Origin: Escherichia coli
GTDB taxonomy: Bacteria; Pseudomonadota; Gammaproteobacteria; Enterobacterales; Enterobacteriaceae
Direction: 5' to 3' (one strand)
Assembly (NCBI RefSeq): GCF_048403405.1
Contig: NZ_CP183129.1
DNA length: 64,000 bases
Position numbers and translations under genes: made by a program. Positions 1-34,671 of this stretch are shown here, piece by piece. The notes below the pieces were generated by a model. The model saw only the letters and a list, made by a program, of their open reading frames with translations, did not search any database and had not been told where the DNA came from. Positions within the stretch are counted from its first letter, which is position 1. The number at the start of each line of letters is the position of its first letter.

Positions 1-1
1 A

Positions 2-448
2 GCGGTGGGCTACGGTCATGACCTTGCCGCGCGCGAGAGCATGTTGCTGGCTTCATGCATGGCGGGAATGGCGTTTTCCAGTGCGGGGCTTGGGTTATGC
101 CACGCGATGGCGCATCAGCCGGGGGCGGCGCTGCATATTCCGCACGGTCTGGCGAACGCCATGTTGTTGCCAACGGTGATGGAATTTAACCGGATGGTTT
201 GTCGTGAACGCTTTAGTCAGATTGGTCGGGCGCTGCGAACTAAAAAATCCGACGATCGTGACGCTATTAACGCGGTAAGTGAGCTGATTGCGGAAGTCGG
301 GATTGGTAAACGACTGGGCGATATTGGTGCGACATCTGCGCATTACGGCGCATGGGCGCAGGCCGCGCTGGAAGATATTTGTCTGCGCAGCAACCCGCGT
401 ACCGCCAGCCTGGAGCAGATTGTCGGCCTGTACGCAGCGGCGCAATAA
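2..448 (+). CDS. eutG: EutG, iron-containing alcohol dehydrogenase (C-terminal part; 5' end outside window)
   Basis: ORF 5..448 translation matches Fe-ADH C-terminus; frame is open to the window start; followed by eutH. Confidence 0.85.
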   Translation, partial: AVGYGHDLAARESMLLASCMAGMAFSSAGLGLCHAMAHQPGAALHIPHGLANAMLLPTVMEFNRMVCRERFSQIGRALRTKKSDDRDAINAVSELIAEVGIGKRLGDIGATSAHYGAWAQAALEDICLRSNPRTASLEQIVGLYAAAQ

Positions 449-461
449 AAGTGTACGGACA

Positions 462-560
462 GTCCCCTCGCCCCTTTGGGGAGAGGGTTAGGGTGAGGGG
501 AACAGAGTCGCGCCGGTGCAAACAATTACCCTCACCCCGGCCCCTCGGCTTCCAGAGTGA
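462..560. repeat. GC-rich imperfect palindromic intergenic repeat (cccctcgcccc/ggggagaggg; gggtgaggg/ccctcaccc)
   Basis: Inverted repeats read directly in the eutG-eutH spacer; family assignment not possible without a search. Confidence 0.3.
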
Positions 561-617
561 GGGAAAAACCCACTTTCAGCATTGGCAATAAATAACAACT
601 AACAGGGAGTAAAGGCG

Positions 618-1844
618 ATGGGAATTAACGAAATCATCATGTACATCATGATGTTCTTTATGCTGATAGCTGCCGTAGACAGGATCCTGTCGCAGTTCGG
701 TGGTTCTGCTCGTTTCCTCGGTAAGTTCGGTAAAAGTATCGAAGGATCAGGCGGTCAGTTCGAAGAAGGCTTTATGGCAATGGGCGCTCTGGGCCTGGCG
801 ATGGTCGGTATGACCGCGCTGGCACCGGTACTGGCTCACGTACTCGGGCCGGTGATTATCCCGGTTTACGAAATGCTCGGCGCAAACCCGTCAATGTTCG
901 CCGGAACACTGCTGGCGTGCGATATGGGCGGGTTCTTCCTCGCCAAAGAGCTGGCGGGCGGCGACGTAGCAGCGTGGCTATACTCTGGGTTAATTCTCGG
1001 GTCGATGATGGGGCCAACGATTGTGTTTTCCATTCCGGTGGCGCTCGGCATTATCGAACCTTCTGACCGTCGTTATCTGGCGCTCGGCGTGCTGGCGGGC
1101 ATTGTGACCATTCCGATTGGCTGTATTGCTGGTGGTCTGGTTGCTATGTACTCCGGTGTGCAGATCAACGGTCAGCCGGTGGAATTCACCTTTGCGCTGA
1201 TCCTGATGAACATGATCCCGGTACTTATCGTTGCGGTGCTGGTGGCGCTGGGGCTGAAATTCATCCCGGAAAAAATGATCAACGGCTTCCAGATCTTCGC
1301 CAAATTCCTCGTTGCATTGATCACCCTCGGTCTTGCTGCCGCGGTAGTGAAATTCCTCCTTGGCTGGGAACTGATCCCCGGTCTGGATCCTATCTTTATG
1401 GCCCCTGGCGACAAACCCGGTGAAGTGATGCGCGCCATTGAAGTTATCGGTTCTATCTCCTGCGTTCTGTTAGGGGCGTACCCGATGGTGCTGCTGCTGA
1501 CCCGCTGGTTTGAAAAACCGCTGATGAGCGTCGGTAAAGTGCTGAATATGAACAACATCGCGGCAGCTGGCATGGTGGCAACGCTTGCTAACAACATCCC
1601 GATGTTCGGCATGATGAAGCAGATGGATACCCGCGGCAAAGTCATCAACTGCGCCTTCGCCGTTTCCGCTGCTTTCGCCCTGGGTGACCACTTAGGCTTC
1701 GCCGCTGCCAACATGAACGCCATGATTTTCCCGATGATTGTCGGCAAGTTGATCGGCGGCGTAACGGCGATTGGCGTGGCGATGATGCTGGTGCCAAAAG
1801 AAGACGCGACCGCGGCCAAAACCGAAGCGGAGGCACAATCGTGA
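618..1844 (+). CDS. eutH: EutH, ethanolamine permease
   Basis: 408-aa polytopic membrane ORF in conserved eut context. Confidence 0.9.
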   Translation: MGINEIIMYIMMFFMLIAAVDRILSQFGGSARFLGKFGKSIEGSGGQFEEGFMAMGALGLAMVGMTALAPVLAHVLGPVIIPVYEMLGANPSMFAGTLLACDMGGFFLAKELAGGDVAAWLYSGLILGSMMGPTIVFSIPVALGIIEPSDRRYLALGVLAGIVTIPIGCIAGGLVAMYSGVQINGQPVEFTFALILMNMIPVLIVAVLVALGLKFIPEKMINGFQIFAKFLVALITLGLAAAVVKFLLGWELIPGLDPIFMAPGDKPGEVMRAIEVIGSISCVLLGAYPMVLLLTRWFEKPLMSVGKVLNMNNIAAAGMVATLANNIPMFGMMKQMDTRGKVINCAFAVSAAFALGDHLGFAAANMNAMIFPMIVGKLIGGVTAIGVAMMLVPKEDATAAKTEAEAQS

Positions 1845-3244
1845 ACACTCGCCAGCTACTGAGCGTCGGTATCGATATCGGCACCACCACCACCCAGGTG
1901 ATTTTCTCCCACCTGGAGCTGGTTAACCGTGCGGCGGTGTCGCAGGTGCCGCGCTACGAATTCATCAAACGCGAAATTAGCTGGCAAAGCCCGGTGTTCT
2001 TTACCCCTGTCGATAAACAGGGTGGTTTAAAAGAAGCGGAACTGAAAACCTTAATCCTGGAGCAATATCAGGCTGCGGGCATTGCGCCGGAAAGTGTTGA
2101 TTCTGGTGCCATCATCATCACCGGTGAAAGCGCGAAAACCCGCAACGCTCGCCCGGCGGTGATGACGCTCTCCCAGTCTCTGGGCGATTTTGTCGTCGCC
2201 AGCGCCGGGCCGCATCTCGAATCCGTGATCGCCGGTCACGGTGCCGGGGCGCAAACCCTTTCTGAACAACGGCTGTGTCGGGTACTGAATATCGATATCG
2301 GCGGTGGCACTGCGAACTACGCCCTGTTCGATGCCGGAAAAATCAGCGGCACCGCCTGCCTCAACGTCGGCGGTCGCCTGCTGGAAACCGACAGCCAGGG
2401 GCGCGTGGTTTACGCTCATAAACCGGGGCAGATGATTGTGGATGAGTGCTTCGGCGCAGGCACCGACGCCCGTTCGCTGACCGGCGCGCAGCTGGTGCAG
2501 GTTACCCGGCGGATGGCAGAGCTGATTGTCGAAGTGATTGACGGAACGCTTTCGCCGCTCGCGCAGGCATTAATGCAAACCGGTTTGCTGCCCGCAGGTG
2601 TTACGCCCGAAATCATTACGCTTTCTGGCGGCGTGGGCGAATGTTATCGCCACCAGCCCGCCGACCCGTTCTGTTTTGCCGATATCGGCCCGCTTCTGGC
2701 AACGGCGCTGCATGACCATCCGCGCCTGCGTGAGATGAACGTGCAGTTTCCGGCGCAAACCGTACGCGCCACGGTGATTGGCGCGGGTGCACATACCCTT
2801 TCGCTCTCTGGCAGCACAATCTGGCTGGAGGGCGTACAACTGCCGCTGCGCAATTTGCCGGTGGCGATCCCAATTGATGAAACGGATCTGGTGAGTGCCT
2901 GGCAACAGGCGCTGATTCAGCTGGATCTTGATCCCAATTCTGACGCGTACGTGCTGGCGCTTCCCGCCTCGCTGCCTGTGCGTTACGCCGCGGTACTGAC
3001 GGTCATCAACGCGCTGGTCGATTTCGTCGCGCGTTTTCCGAATCCGCATCCCCTGCTGGTGGTGGCCGGGCAGGACTTTGGTAAAGCTCTGGGCATGTTG
3101 TTGCGCCCACAGCTACAACAACTCCCGTTGGCAGTCATTGACGAAGTGATTGTCCGCGCGGGGGACTATATCGACATTGGTACGCCTCTTTTTGGCGGAT
3201 CGGTTGTGCCGGTGACGGTGAAATCACTCGCATTTCCTTCCTGA
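1841..3244 (+). CDS. eutA: EutA, ethanolamine ammonia-lyase reactivase
   Basis: 467-aa ORF overlapping the eutH stop by 4 bp. Confidence 0.9.
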   Translation: MNTRQLLSVGIDIGTTTTQVIFSHLELVNRAAVSQVPRYEFIKREISWQSPVFFTPVDKQGGLKEAELKTLILEQYQAAGIAPESVDSGAIIITGESAKTRNARPAVMTLSQSLGDFVVASAGPHLESVIAGHGAGAQTLSEQRLCRVLNIDIGGGTANYALFDAGKISGTACLNVGGRLLETDSQGRVVYAHKPGQMIVDECFGAGTDARSLTGAQLVQVTRRMAELIVEVIDGTLSPLAQALMQTGLLPAGVTPEIITLSGGVGECYRHQPADPFCFADIGPLLATALHDHPRLREMNVQFPAQTVRATVIGAGAHTLSLSGSTIWLEGVQLPLRNLPVAIPIDETDLVSAWQQALIQLDLDPNSDAYVLALPASLPVRYAAVLTVINALVDFVARFPNPHPLLVVAGQDFGKALGMLLRPQLQQLPLAVIDEVIVRAGDYIDIGTPLFGGSVVPVTVKSLAFPS

Positions 3245-3255
3245 GGGAACGACTT

Positions 3256-4617
3256 ATGAAACTAAAGACCACATTGTTCGGCAATGTATATCAGTTTAAG
3301 GATGTAAAAGAGGTGCTGGCTAAAGCCAACGAACTGCGTTCGGGGGATGTGCTGGCGGGCGTTGCAGCGGCAAGCTCACAAGAGCGCGTGGCGGCAAAGC
3401 AGGTGTTGTCGGAAATGACCGTAGCGGACATCCGCAATAATCCGGTGATTGCCTATGAAGATGACTGCGTGACGCGGCTGATTCAGGACGACGTTAACGA
3501 AACGGCCTACAACCAGATTAAAAACTGGAGCATCAGCGAACTGCGTGAGTATGTCCTGAGCGATGAAACCAGCGTGGACGACATTGCCTTTACCCGCAAA
3601 GGGCTGACCTCGGAAGTGGTTGCGGCGGTAGCGAAGATTTGCTCCAACGCGGACCTGATCTACGGCGCGAAGAAAATGCCGGTAATCAAAAAGGCCAATA
3701 CCACCATCGGTATTCCGGGCACCTTCAGCGCCCGTTTGCAGCCAAATGACACCCGTGACGACGTGCAAAGTATCGCTGCGCAAATCTACGAAGGGCTTTC
3801 CTTCGGGGTGGGCGATGCGGTGATCGGCGTCAACCCGGTGACGGACGACGTGGAAAACTTAAGCCGCGTGCTGGACACCATCTACGGCGTGATCGACAAA
3901 TTCAACATTCCGACCCAGGGCTGCGTGCTGGCGCACGTCACCACCCAGATTGAAGCGATCCGTCGTGGCGCACCGGGCGGGCTGATTTTCCAGAGTATCT
4001 GCGGCAGCGAAAAAGGGCTGAAAGAGTTTGGCGTGGAGCTGGCGATGCTCGATGAAGCACGCGCAGTGGGCGCGGAGTTCAACCGTATCGCCGGGGAAAA
4101 CTGCCTCTACTTCGAAACCGGACAAGGTTCGGCGCTGTCCGCTGGCGCTAACTTCGGCGCTGACCAGGTGACGATGGAAGCGCGTAACTATGGGCTGGCG
4201 CGTCATTACGATCCGTTTATCGTCAACACCGTGGTCGGTTTTATTGGGCCGGAGTATCTCTACAACGACCGCCAGATTATCCGCGCGGGCTTAGAAGATC
4301 ACTTTATGGGCAAGCTGAGCGGCATCTCTATGGGCTGTGACTGCTGCTACACCAACCACGCTGACGCTGACCAGAACCTCAACGAAAACCTGATGATCCT
4401 GCTCGCCACCGCAGGCTGTAACTACATCATGGGGATGCCGCTGGGTGATGACATCATGCTCAACTACCAGACTACGGCCTTCCACGACACCGCCACTGTG
4501 CGTCAGTTACTCAACCTGCGCCCGTCACCGGAGTTTGAACGCTGGCTGGAAAGCATGGGCATTATGGCAAACGGTCGCCTGACCAAACGGGCGGGCGATC
4601 CGTCACTGTTCTTCTGA
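3256..4617 (+). CDS. eutB: EutB, ethanolamine ammonia-lyase large subunit
   Basis: 453-aa ORF starting 11 bp after the eutA stop. Confidence 0.92.
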   Translation: MKLKTTLFGNVYQFKDVKEVLAKANELRSGDVLAGVAAASSQERVAAKQVLSEMTVADIRNNPVIAYEDDCVTRLIQDDVNETAYNQIKNWSISELREYVLSDETSVDDIAFTRKGLTSEVVAAVAKICSNADLIYGAKKMPVIKKANTTIGIPGTFSARLQPNDTRDDVQSIAAQIYEGLSFGVGDAVIGVNPVTDDVENLSRVLDTIYGVIDKFNIPTQGCVLAHVTTQIEAIRRGAPGGLIFQSICGSEKGLKEFGVELAMLDEARAVGAEFNRIAGENCLYFETGQGSALSAGANFGADQVTMEARNYGLARHYDPFIVNTVVGFIGPEYLYNDRQIIRAGLEDHFMGKLSGISMGCDCCYTNHADADQNLNENLMILLATAGCNYIMGMPLGDDIMLNYQTTAFHDTATVRQLLNLRPSPEFERWLESMGIMANGRLTKRAGDPSLFF

Positions 4618-4637: not shown

Positions 4638-5525
4638 ATGGATCAAAAACAGATTGAAGAAATTGTACGCAGCGTGATGGCGTCAATGGGACAAGCGGCC
4701 CCCGCGCCGTCAGAAGCAAAGTGCGCCACCACCACCTGTGCGGCACCGGTGACCTCGGAAAGCTGCGCGCTGGATTTAGGCTCTGCGGAAGCAAAAGCGT
4801 GGATTGGCGTTGAAAACCCGCATCGCGCAGACGTATTAACAGAACTGCGTCGCAGCACCGTGGCCCGCGTTTGTACCGGTCGTGCCGGTCCGCGTCCGCG
4901 TACCCAGGCGTTGCTGCGTTTCCTGGCCGATCACTCTCGTTCGAAAGATACCGTACTGAAAGAAGTGCCGGAAGAGTGGGTGAAAGCGCAGGGCTTGCTG
5001 GAAGTCCGCTCTGAAATTAGCGACAAAAATCTCTACCTGACTCGTCCGGATATGGGCCGCCGCCTGTGTGCAGAAGCTGTTGAAGCGCTGAAAGCGCAGT
5101 GTGTTGCCAATCCGGACGTGCAGGTCGTTATTTCTGATGGCCTGTCAACTGATGCGATCACCGTGAACTACGAAGAGATCCTGCCACCGCTGATGGCGGG
5201 CCTGAAACAGGCCGGGCTGAAAGTCGGTACGCCATTCTTTGTTCGTTATGGTCGCGTGAAGATTGAAGATCAGATCGGTGAGATCCTCGGCGCGAAAGTA
5301 GTGATCCTACTGGTGGGGGAACGCCCGGGATTAGGGCAGTCAGAAAGCCTCTCCTGCTACGCCGTTTACTCGCCGCGTATGGCGACCACCGTTGAGGCCG
5401 ATCGCACCTGCATCTCTAACATTCACCAGGGCGGCACGCCGCCGGTTGAAGCCGCAGCCGTCATTGTGGATTTGGCGAAACGTATGCTGGAGCAGAAAGC
5501 ATCCGGCATCAACATGACCCGATAA
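4638..5525 (+). CDS. eutC: EutC, ethanolamine ammonia-lyase small subunit
   Basis: 295-aa ORF in operon context. Confidence 0.92.
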
Positions 5526-5534
5526 GGAGGCATC

Positions 5535-6194
5535 ATGCCAGCTTTAGATTTGATTCGACCGTCGGTCACCGCCATGCGGGTGATTGCCTCTGTTAACGCC
5601 GAATTTGCGCGTGAACTGAAATTGCCGCCGCATATTCGTAGCCTCGGGCTGATTTCTGCTGATTCCGATGACGTCACCTACATTGCGGCTGACGAAGCGA
5701 CCAAGCAGGCGATGGTCGAAGTGGTGTATGGCCGCTCGCTGTATGCGGGAGCTGCACACGGACCGTCACCGACTGCCGGTGAAGTGCTGATTATGCTCGG
5801 TGGGCCAAACCCGGCGGAAGTGCGTGCTGGTCTGGATGCGATGGTTGCGCATATTGAAAATGGCGCGGCTTTCCAGTGGGCTAATGATGCGCAAGATACG
5901 GCATTCCTGGCACATGTAGTTTCGCGTACCGGTTCTTATCTCTCATCAACCGCCGGGATCACGCTTGGCGATCCGATGGCGTATCTGGTGGCACCGCCGC
6001 TGGAAGCGACCTATGGCATTGATGCAGCCCTGAAATCTGCCGACGTACAGCTGGTGACCTATGTCCCGCCACCGTCTGAAACCAACTACTCGGCAGCATT
6101 TTTAACCGGTAGCCAGGCAGCGTGTAAAGCAGCCTGTAACGCCTTTACCGATGCAGTGCTGGAAATCGCGCGTAATCCAATCCAGCGTGCGTAA
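5535..6194 (+). CDS. eutL: EutL, microcompartment shell protein
   Basis: 219-aa ORF in operon context. Confidence 0.9.
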
Positions 6195-6200
6195 CGGAGG

Positions 6201-6707
6201 TTGCCGATGATCAATGCACTGGGATTGCTGGAAGTGGACGGCATGGTCGCCGCGCTAGATGCTGCGGATGCCATGCTCAAAGCAGCTAACGTTCGTCTGC
6301 TCAGTCACGAAGTGCTTGACCCTGGTCGCCTAACGCTGGTGGTGGAAGGCGATCTGGCGGCGTGTCGTGCGGCGCTGGACGCAGGTTGTGCTGCCGCGAT
6401 GCGTACCGGGCGTGTCATCAGCCGCAAGGAGATCGGTCGGCCAGACGATGACACCCAGTGGCTGGTTACTGGCTTTAACCGCCAGCCTAAGCAACCCGTA
6501 AAGGAACCCGACGCGCCAGTTATCGTCGCGGAATCTGCTGACGAGTTGTTGGCGCTGTTAACATCAGTACGTCAGGGAATGACGGCAGGAGAAGTGGCTG
6601 CCCACTTTGGCTGGCCGCTGGAAAAAGCCAGAAATGCGCTCGAACAGCTCTTTTCTGCCGGGACGTTACGTAAACGCAGTAGTCGTTATCGTCTCAAGCC
6701 CCATTAA
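6201..6707 (+). CDS. eutK: EutK, microcompartment shell protein with C-terminal extension
   Basis: 168-aa ORF, N-terminal BMC-like sequence MINALGLLEVDGMVAALDAADAMLKAANV. Confidence 0.88.
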   Translation: MPMINALGLLEVDGMVAALDAADAMLKAANVRLLSHEVLDPGRLTLVVEGDLAACRAALDAGCAAAMRTGRVISRKEIGRPDDDTQWLVTGFNRQPKQPVKEPDAPVIVAESADELLALLTSVRQGMTAGEVAAHFGWPLEKARNALEQLFSAGTLRKRSSRYRLKPH

Positions 6708-6752: not shown

Positions 6753-7805
6753 ATGAAAAAGACCCGTACAGCCAATTTGCACCATCTTTATCATGAACCC
6801 TTACCCGAAAACCTGAAGCTCACGCCGAAGGTCGAAGTGGATAATGTTCATCAACGACAGACAACGGATGTCTATGAACATGCTTTGACAATTACCGCCT
6901 GGCAGCAGATTTACGATCAGCTGCATCCGGGCAAGTTTCATGGTGAATTTACGGAAATTCTACTCGATGATATTCAGGTTTTTCGTGAATACACCGGTCT
7001 GGCGCTGCGTCAGTCGTGCCTGGTCTGGCCGAATTCGTTCTGGTTTGGCATTCCGGCGACGCGCGGTGAGCAGGGATTTATCGGTTCGCAATGTCTGGGA
7101 AGCGCAGAAATAGCGACGCGCCCTGGTGGAACCGAGTTTGAATTAAGTACGCCGGATGATTACACGATCCTTGGCGTAGTGCTTTCTGAAGATGTCATCA
7201 CCCGTCAGGCTAACTTTTTGCATAATCCGGATCGGGTATTACATATGCTGCGTAGCCAGTCGGCGCTGGAAGTGAAAGAGCAGCATAAAGCCGCGCTGTG
7301 GGGCTTTGTCCAACAGGCGCTGGCGACATTTTGCGAGAACCCGGAAAATCTTCATCAGCCTGCTGTGCGTAAAGTGCTGGGGGATAATTTGCTAATGGCG
7401 ATGGGGGCGATGCTGGAAGAAGCGCAGCCAATGGTGACGGCGGAAAGCATCAGTCATCAGAGTTACCGTCGGTTGCTTTCCCGCGCCCGTGAATATGTGC
7501 TGGAAAACATGTCTGAGCCGGTGACTGTGCTGGACTTGTGTAATCAACTGCATGTCAGCCGCCGCACGCTACAAAACGCGTTTCACGCTATTTTAGGCAT
7601 TGGCCCAAATGCGTGGCTGAAACGCATTCGCCTGAACGCCGTACGCCGCGAACTGATAAGCCCTTGGTCGCAAAGCACAACGGTAAAAGACGCCGCCATG
7701 CAGTGGGGATTCTGGCATCTGGGGCAATTTGCCACGGATTACCAGCAGCTGTTTGCCGAGAAGCCGTCGTTGACGCTGCATCAGCGGATGCGGGAATGGG
7801 GGTGA
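6753..7805 (+). CDS. eutR: EutR, AraC-family activator of the eut operon
   Basis: 350-aa ORF with C-terminal AraC-type HTH. Confidence 0.9.
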
Positions 7806-34013: not shown

Positions 34014-34089
34014 ATTGGTGGGTCGTGCAGGATTCGAACCTGCGACCAATTGATTAAAAGTCAACTGCTCTACCAACTGAGCTAACGAC
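34014..34089 (-). tRNA. lysV: tRNA-Lys (UUU)
   Basis: 76 nt, reverse complement GGGTCGTTAGCTCAG...ACTTTTAATCA...CCACCA. Confidence 0.95.
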
Positions 34090-34093
34090 CCGA

Positions 34094-34169
34094 AGTGGTG
34101 GGTGATGACGGGATCGAACCGCCGACCCCCTCCTTGTAAGGGAGGTGCTCTCCCAGCTGAGCTAATCAC
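34094..34169 (-). tRNA. valY: tRNA-Val (UAC)
   Basis: 76 nt, anticodon loop CCTTACAAGG, 3' CCA. Confidence 0.95.
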
Positions 34170-34215
34170 CCACTTCGGTACTTCACATTTTTACAAGAAA
34201 TTTAGCTGGCGAGAA

Positions 34216-34291
34216 AGTGGTGGGTGATGACGGGATCGAACCGCCGACCCCCTCCTTGTAAGGGAGGTGCTCTCCCAGCTGAGCTAATCAC
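34216..34291 (-). tRNA. valX: tRNA-Val (UAC)
   Basis: Identical 76-nt copy. Confidence 0.95.
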
Positions 34292-34335
34292 CCACTTCTC
34301 AATTTCTTGCTACACGGCGGAGACTACATAAAGTA

Positions 34336-34411
34336 GTTGGTGGGTGATGACGGGATCGAACCGCCGACCCCCTCCTTGTAAGGGAGGTGCTCTCCCAGCT
34401 GAGCTAATCAC
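34336..34411 (-). tRNA. valU: tRNA-Val (UAC)
   Basis: Identical 76-nt copy. Confidence 0.95.
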
Positions 34412-34671
34412 CCCCGCTGTGTGGAGTCGCATTATAGGGAGAGTTCAAAATGAGTCAACGCATTTTCTAAAGAAATTGTTCGTTCGTCGTAAATTTAAGC
34501 AAGATGATCGCAAAACAGACCGTGTTGCGCAATTTGTCAACGAAAACAATAATGCGTAAGGTTGCAACCCGAACTACATTGAGGAATCAGGCGGGAGTGA
34601 TAGAATATCGCCCACTCAATTTTTCCAGGATTTGCCGGTTGTCGGCATCTTTCTAAACGTAAGGCCATTTC

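Follow-up and report, generated by a model that had tools for sequence, protein, structure and literature searches.

The closest described counterpart of the repeat analysed here has been named three times: BoxC (Bergler 1992), PIT (Hoyne and Maher 2000, 2002) and TMECO (Holder et al. 2015, PMC4666352) denote one and the same element, and the family is thus already known: it dates back to 1992, received its second description in 2000 and was characterised in 2015. As TMECO it is defined as a potential intrastrand triplex motif, of which 23 copies were tabulated in K-12, with the types distinguished by the second loop (TTA in type A, CCG in type B) and with inverted pairs of A and B on opposite strands at five K-12 loci (PMC4666352). 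Oligonucleotides of the G-rich strand of both types formed an intrastrand purine-motif triplex in vitro, as demonstrated by CD and NMR, while DMS footprinting failed to reveal it in vivo, and RNA does not form purine-motif triplexes (PMC4666352). According to the same source, PIT/TMECO elements showed no promoter or terminator activity, are not associated with gene class or function, orientation or distance, and have surroundings that vary more between strains than control intergenic regions (PMC4666352). The other repeats relevant for comparison are the REP/BIME elements, of which the BIME-2 arrays are known to differ in copy number between strains (PMC3333891).

The window, i.e. the whole 64-kb stretch of DNA that was analysed, opens inside eutG, whose TAA stop codon occupies 446-448, and the following eutG-eutH spacer (449-617) has a length of 169 nt. 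The next gene, eutH, starts with the ATG at 618 and ends at 1844, while eutA begins at 1841. The names eutG and eutH were taken from the annotation of RefSeq records 100% identical to the window over 1-1500, and the same annotation agreed with the placement, in an earlier note made from the sequence alone, of GC-rich palindromes in the eutG-eutH spacer within an operon. The features of this region are the following:

5-448, plus strand: 3' end of eutG (listed open reading frame and RefSeq annotation of a 100% identical record)
442-449: left copy of the direct repeat GCAATAAA, which takes in the eutG stop codon and the sense codon before it (repeat search)
447-463, plus strand: BoxC left arm AAAAGTGTACGGACAGT, family consensus AAAAAGTGCACGGACAGT (family alignments)
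465-500, plus strand: intact BoxC/TMECO motif of type 'A mm' (exact consensus regex match)
465-473, 479-487, 488-490 and 491-499: blocks of the type A motif, namely the C-block, G-block 1, the TTA loop and G-block 2
501-528, plus strand: central linker AACAGAGTCGCGCCGGTGCAAACAATTA, separating the inverted motifs (family alignments)
529-563, minus strand: decayed type B (CCG loop) BoxC/TMECO motif, inverted (consensus fit with 5 substitutions; paralog alignment)
564-584, plus strand: right arm, AAAAAC followed by CCACTTTCAGCATTG, shorter than in the paralogs (alignment)
585-592: right copy of the direct repeat GCAATAAA, at the start of the flank common to the BIME alleles
605-609, plus strand: GGGAG, likely ribosome-binding site of eutH, outside the repeat, the role being suggested by conservation
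618-1844, plus strand: eutH (open reading frame and RefSeq annotation)

The sequence ACAGGGAG was kept upstream of the eutH ATG across genera in the spacers of species-representative genomes. Small overlapping open reading frames in the region (for example, 352-591 on the plus and 488-598 on the minus strand) were dismissed as by-products of the GC-rich repeat sequence. Downstream of eutA (1841-3244), open reading frames followed at 3256-4617, 4638-5525, 5535-6194, 6201-6707 and 6753-7805; eutA directly adjoined the next frame in this strain with no insertion between them, and in K-12 the CPZ-55 prophage sits between eutA and the next gene.

Using the motif consensus published in PMC4666352, CCCTCNCCC-N3-6-GGGNGAGGG-N3-GGGNGAGGG, a single exact match was found in the 64 kb, at 465-499 on the plus strand. 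The 36-mer at 465-500, CCCTCGCCCCTTTGGGGAGAGGGTTAGGGTGAGGGG, was identical to the K-12 TMECO nos 7, 11 and 15, listed as 'A mm' in Table 1 of that paper: its second loop at 488-490 reads TTA, which makes it type A, and it has one mismatched triplet. The minus strand at 529-563 reads CCCTCACTCTGGAAGCCGAGGGGCCGGGGTGAGGG, with the CCG loop of type B; this half fitted the consensus only when 5 substitutions were allowed, and it aligned with the intact B halves of the paralogs. The spacer has, therefore, the inverted-pair form, i.e. a type A motif on the plus strand facing a decayed type B motif on the minus strand across a 28-nt linker. Because the consensus match is exact, the family membership is secure, and it is near certain from the sequence that the GC-rich palindromes represent one BoxC/PIT/TMECO copy. 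No other BoxC copy was detected in the 64-kb window with either 3 mismatches or a fuzzy regex, the decayed partner being the only extra match, and the searched portion of the supplementary files of PMC4666352 contained no mention of eutG or eutH.

Searches for other element types in the same region were negative. The REP consensus stem-loop (GCCGGATG...CATCCGGC) with GTAG/CTAC was absent from 449-617, though present in the alleles of other strains, and a strict, probably over-strict, REP pattern gave 0 matches in the window. The permissive Rfam 15 search of positions 1-3000 produced only chance-level matches in the spacer, the best being Antizyme_FSE (18 bits against a gathering threshold of 40) and mir-423 (17.8 bits against 71), while in the gathering-threshold search of the whole window tRNAs alone passed. 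The latter formed two clusters, four in tandem at 34019-34413 on the minus strand and two at 40186-40373 on the plus strand.

All four strings quoted in the earlier note as palindrome arms were present: CCCCTCGCCCC at 464-474, GGGGAGAGGG at 478-487, GGGTGAGGG at 491-499 and CCCTCACCC at 529-537. Their description as nested palindromes held in so far as 460-570 is predicted to fold as RNA into a single long nested hairpin (-49.8 kcal/mol); it did not hold for the first named pair, which forms a competing local hairpin and does not enclose the second. The inverted pairings found were 463-473/491-501 (91%), 491-502/526-537 (92%), 478-488/528-538 (91%) and 526-540/552-566 (80%), and the first paired base of the long hairpin lies 16 nt past the eutG stop codon. 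The z-score of the RNA hairpin was -2.31, with 3 of 200 shuffles equally stable, and the DNA fold of the same segment had -23.8 kcal/mol with a z-score of -2.22. Since the fold of the wider segment 446-620 was not distinguishable from shuffles (z-scores of -1.34 on the plus and -0.73 on the minus strand), the fold energy is modest evidence only. What speaks decisively against chance is that the element is repeated and not how stably it folds: when the window was shuffled 100 times, the 23-nt core gave 0 matches, and the 36-mer at 465-500 recurs unchanged in three K-12 elements.

The suggestion of the earlier note that the palindromes might belong to a dispersed repeat family, to be checked by a genome-wide search for copies, was borne out. 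When the spacer was compared by blastn with 5,426 complete E. coli genomes, relatives turned up in 5425 of them, the median number of places per genome being 16; of the 76335 places in all, 76308 were chromosomal. Copies were fetched from the cca-bacA, gcvP-ygfF, yijF-gldA, sstT-alx, recA-recX, thiQ-yabI, fepB-entC, hrpB-mrcB, lldD-trmL, yagA-yagE and xynR-argF loci, and all of them were intergenic. Alignment of nine loci including the window, and a second alignment with eight of them, revealed a unit architecture common to the cca-bacA, gcvP-ygfF, yijF-gldA, sstT-alx, fepB-entC, hrpB-mrcB, recA-recX and thiQ-yabI copies: it consists, in order, of the left arm AAAAAGTGCACGGACAGT, a near-invariant type A motif, the linker AACAGGCCAGCACCGGTGCGAACAATTA, a more variable reverse-complement type B motif and GAGAAAAC followed by a looser right arm. 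In the window this unit spans about 447/450-584. The segment 570-584 first resembled unique spacer sequence, and it aligned with the right arms of the paralogs (gcvP-ygfF, yijF-gldA, recA-recX and fepB-entC); the extent of 462-560 given in the earlier note was accordingly too small, the family alignments placing the element at about 450-584.

The fepB-entC locus offered the clearest view of the unit as a whole: a 186-bp block with a BoxC A/B pair was present in 2,755 genomes and cleanly missing from others, with TAA on either side of the insertion, which is a MITE-like presence/absence pattern. Because this block behaves as one unit, the repeated unit exceeds the 34-37-nt motif. At recA-recX, some strains, such as the O145 strain RM12275-C1, had a half-decayed BoxC unit and further sequence, about 190 nt in all, separating recA from the hairpin and T-run that precede recX, and K-12 had only 16 nt at the same place.

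The distribution of the alleles of the eutG-eutH spacer showed that the BoxC copy is a minor variant of this position. It was found in 303 of the 5,426 complete E. coli genomes (about 5.6%) and was near-invariant, 296 of the 303 copies being at least 99% identical. Other E. coli had a BIME-2 type REP array at the same position, made of units of 100 bp each: one unit in 14EC047, two in K-12 (which has no BoxC copy between eutG and eutH), three in strain B and five in Ec-FL1-1X. Across Escherichia the BIME copy number in this spacer ranged from 1 to 5 or more, and O157:H7 had a shortened BIME derivative of 99 nt. The comparison was extended to species-representative genomes with EutH (50 loci), of which the spacers of 36 were read, and BoxC was found between eutG and eutH in none of these 36. 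BIME arrays were present in this spacer in E. whittamii and three other Escherichia lineages, while Salmonella, Klebsiella, Pseudocitrobacter and several Citrobacter had REP types of their own, and in six Citrobacter the spacer was uninterrupted and 27 nt long (gcacaataaATACACATATGACAGGGAGTGAAGGCTatg). In Buttiauxella, Morganella and Pluralibacter gergoviae, whose spacers of 46-47 nt have no dispersed repeat, a small GCCTG...CAGGC stem-loop closely precedes the ribosome-binding site of eutH. One metagenome-assembled genome labelled 'Citrobacter sp.' (DXKH01000140.1) encoded an EutH 100% identical to that of the window and had a single BIME unit of the E. coli type; this contig probably belongs to E. 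coli and was assigned to Citrobacter in binning or labelling.

Since other E. coli and other Escherichia have BIME arrays in the spacer and BoxC was found in 303 genomes, BIME is, judging from this distribution, the older state at eutG-eutH within Escherichia and the BoxC allele the derived one. Strain EC571 had the identical spacer allele within a flank haplotype that differed from the window at 37 of 1,500 positions (2.5%), with 0 differences in 429-700 against an expectation of about 8 (Poisson P about 3e-4). The lack of differences in this segment suggests that the BoxC allele has recently been spread by recombination of a short tract between divergent haplotypes; the presence of an identical allele in two such haplotypes could reflect selection as well as recombination.

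The BoxC unit in the window is bracketed by the repeat GCAATAAA (442-449 and 585-592), and the array of the BIME alleles has a copy of CAATAAAT on either side; in the uninterrupted spacers of the six Citrobacter genomes the flanking sequence, (G)CAATAAA(T), is single-copy. As read from these alleles, the duplication of 7-8 nt is real but common to BoxC and BIME, and because both allele types have it, it is not creditable to the insertion of BoxC. The single copy in Citrobacter would mean that the duplication either is older than the BoxC allele or arises repeatedly at one and the same target. The left repeat copy may, furthermore, be partly the A-rich left end of the element itself (up to 4 A's). 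Target-site duplication as a general trait of BoxC was not adopted, being ambiguous: the flanking repeats were GCAATAAA at this locus and TAA at fepB-entC, i.e. of inconsistent length, and no clean flanking repeat was found at recA-recX, thiQ-yabI, cca-bacA and yijF-gldA.

All seven BoxC loci examined were polymorphic. At four of the seven (eutG-eutH, thiQ-yabI, cca-bacA and yijF-gldA) the alternative allele was a BIME at exactly the same position, and at recA-recX, fepB-entC and hrpB-mrcB it was absence or a deletion derivative. At thiQ-yabI the third base of the stop codon differed by allele (TAA versus TAG). Assuming a BIME in about 15% of intergenic regions, which is a rough figure of our own, the chance of at least four BIME alternatives among seven loci is about 0.01, the sample being small and non-random. 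The linkers were also compared: AGTCGCGCCGGTGCAAA in the window agreed at 15 of 17 positions with AGTGGCGCGGTGCAAA in the tail-to-tail linker of the BIME that other Escherichia have at the same locus, a match not reached in any of 5,000 shuffles, and at five of the six positions where the linker of the window departs from the BoxC family consensus it has the BIME base. The match between the family consensus linker and the BIME linker was not significant (P about 0.08), and among the copies compared only those of the window and of thiQ-yabI stood out by their BIME-like linkers. The linker of the window could be a product of recombination of the incoming BoxC with the resident BIME (a hybrid or conversion), a subfamily feature, or a matter of chance. 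To our knowledge, BoxC has no described mechanism of mobility, and Bachellier and colleagues are said to have noted boxC insertions at BIME loci already in 1997 in Genetics. That BoxC and BIME might replace each other through a shared site-directed process, for example the REP/BIME machinery or BIME-induced breaks, is rather unlikely on the present small sample, in which these points were noticed post hoc; if true, however, systematic replacement would be the first handle on how BoxC spreads.

Taken together, it is highly probable that the spacer contains a passive BoxC copy, an A/B inverted pair at about 450-584, which is co-transcribed within the operon and whose effects are structural, although the passivity is much less certain than the family identity. 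Such a copy would have no dedicated role in eut expression. In the mRNA a long hairpin of about -50 kcal/mol is predicted to form as a structural by-product, and in the DNA the G-rich type A motif, which lies on the non-template strand, may adopt a hairpin or a purine-motif triplex when single-stranded; such single-strand structures would plausibly contribute to the unusual variability of BoxC sites. Scanning for promoter-like and terminator-like sites found none in 449-617, the two terminator-like sites reported by the scan lying inside eutH (635-653). Against the passive reading we counted the retention of the hairpin despite the decay of the B half, the presence of some palindromic element in this spacer in most genera sampled and the identity of the allele in two divergent haplotypes; the copy might, moreover, affect the decay of eut mRNA or the eutG/eutH expression ratio.

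The earlier note had also considered that the palindromes might act in the eut transcript as an RNA element for processing or stability. On that reading the BoxC hairpin would be a functional RNA, either a barrier to 3'-to-5' exonucleases stabilising eutS-eutG relative to eutH-eutR or a modulator of translation termination at eutG. The stability of the predicted hairpin (-49.8 kcal/mol, z-score -2.31), its location inside the operon with the first paired base so close (16 nt) to the eutG stop, and the start of the BIME replaced by BoxC only 1-2 nt past that stop are all consistent with such a role. REP stem-loops, moreover, reportedly act as mRNA stabilisers, as Newbury and colleagues are said to have found in 1987, and REPs near stop codons reportedly reduce expression of the upstream gene, as Liang and colleagues are said to have found in 2015. 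The best argument in favour is comparative: palindromes occurred in this spacer in most of the genera sampled, and spacers without a dispersed repeat often had the small GCCTG...CAGGC hairpin, so that a hairpin here is perhaps useful and not merely tolerated. However, eight sampled species had a spacer of 27-32 nt with no inserted repeat, and the sequence in the window is dictated by the dispersed family and not by the locus. Across the eight family members 0 compensatory changes were found in the long hairpin, the substitutions seen breaking pairs; this lack is either uninformative or negative with respect to an RNA structure under selection. The spacer matched no Rfam family and had no promoter- or terminator-like site, and the family as a whole showed neither an orientation or gene-class bias nor terminator activity (PMC4666352). 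We regard a functional RNA element as unlikely for these reasons, and the roles in termination and in adaptive instability, considered below, as less likely than it.

The reading at the DNA level would make the copy a structure-prone site, at which a triplex or hairpin stalls replication or draws repair and which is kept for the useful variation that results. It agrees with the triplex formed in vitro and the raised variability around the copies (PMC4666352), with the polymorphism of 7 of 7 BoxC loci examined, and with the hypervariability of this spacer, which comprises the BIME alleles of 1 to 5 or more units, the deleted O157 form and the BoxC allele. The variability here, however, is mostly one of BIME copy number and is explained by the biology of BIME (PMC3333891), while the BoxC allele itself was near-invariant (296 of 303 copies at least 99% identical); in vivo DMS footprinting detected no triplex, and the population-level benefit is a speculation of the authors of that study (PMC4666352). 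This makes a selected instability site very unlikely.

An intrinsic terminator or attenuator separating eutG from eutH would agree with the GC-rich stem directly after the stop codon; it is most implausible, however, given that none of the stems is followed by a T/U run, that the scan found no terminator-like site in the spacer, that PIT elements showed no terminator activity (PMC4666352) and that no separate promoter-like site for eutH and the genes downstream was found there.

The passive BoxC copy remains, thus, the preferred reading. As it stands the finding has little weight, the element being a textbook dispersed repeat; its value for annotation is that 'BoxC repeat, A/B inverted pair' is the proper label for the spacer, which should not be treated as a candidate regulatory RNA. 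Because the same spacer exists with BoxC, with a BIME array of 1 to 5 or more units and, uninterrupted, in Citrobacter, the effects of repeats inside an operon are cleanly testable at this locus.

Compared with the MITE-like ERIC/IRU repeats, the BoxC copy shares the format of a small non-coding unit (130-190 bp) with overall inverted symmetry, as well as the presence/absence polymorphism and the short flanking repeats (TAA at fepB-entC, GCAATAAA here). In contrast to ERIC, it has no sequence similarity to that family, and its flanking repeats are ambiguous and of inconsistent length. We know of no cognate transposase of BoxC. The similarity to REP/BIME-2, which is associated with TnpA-REP/RAYT, lies in the GC-rich extragenic palindromes arranged as two inverted units with a linker, in the use of the identical site in other strains with the same flanking direct repeat, and in the BIME-like linker of the window copy. 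The differences are that the BoxC copy has no REP consensus or GTAG/CTAC, that it is not tandemly amplified, and that its motif consists of three blocks (C-G-G), while REP/BIME is a simple stem-loop. With the described BoxC/PIT/TMECO elements, finally, the copy has in common the exact consensus, the TTA loop of type A, the inverted type B partner, the intergenic location, the multi-copy occurrence and the polymorphism among strains; it differs from them by the decay of its B half and by a repeated unit that exceeds both the motif of 34-37 nt and the classical length of 56 bp and has conserved arms.
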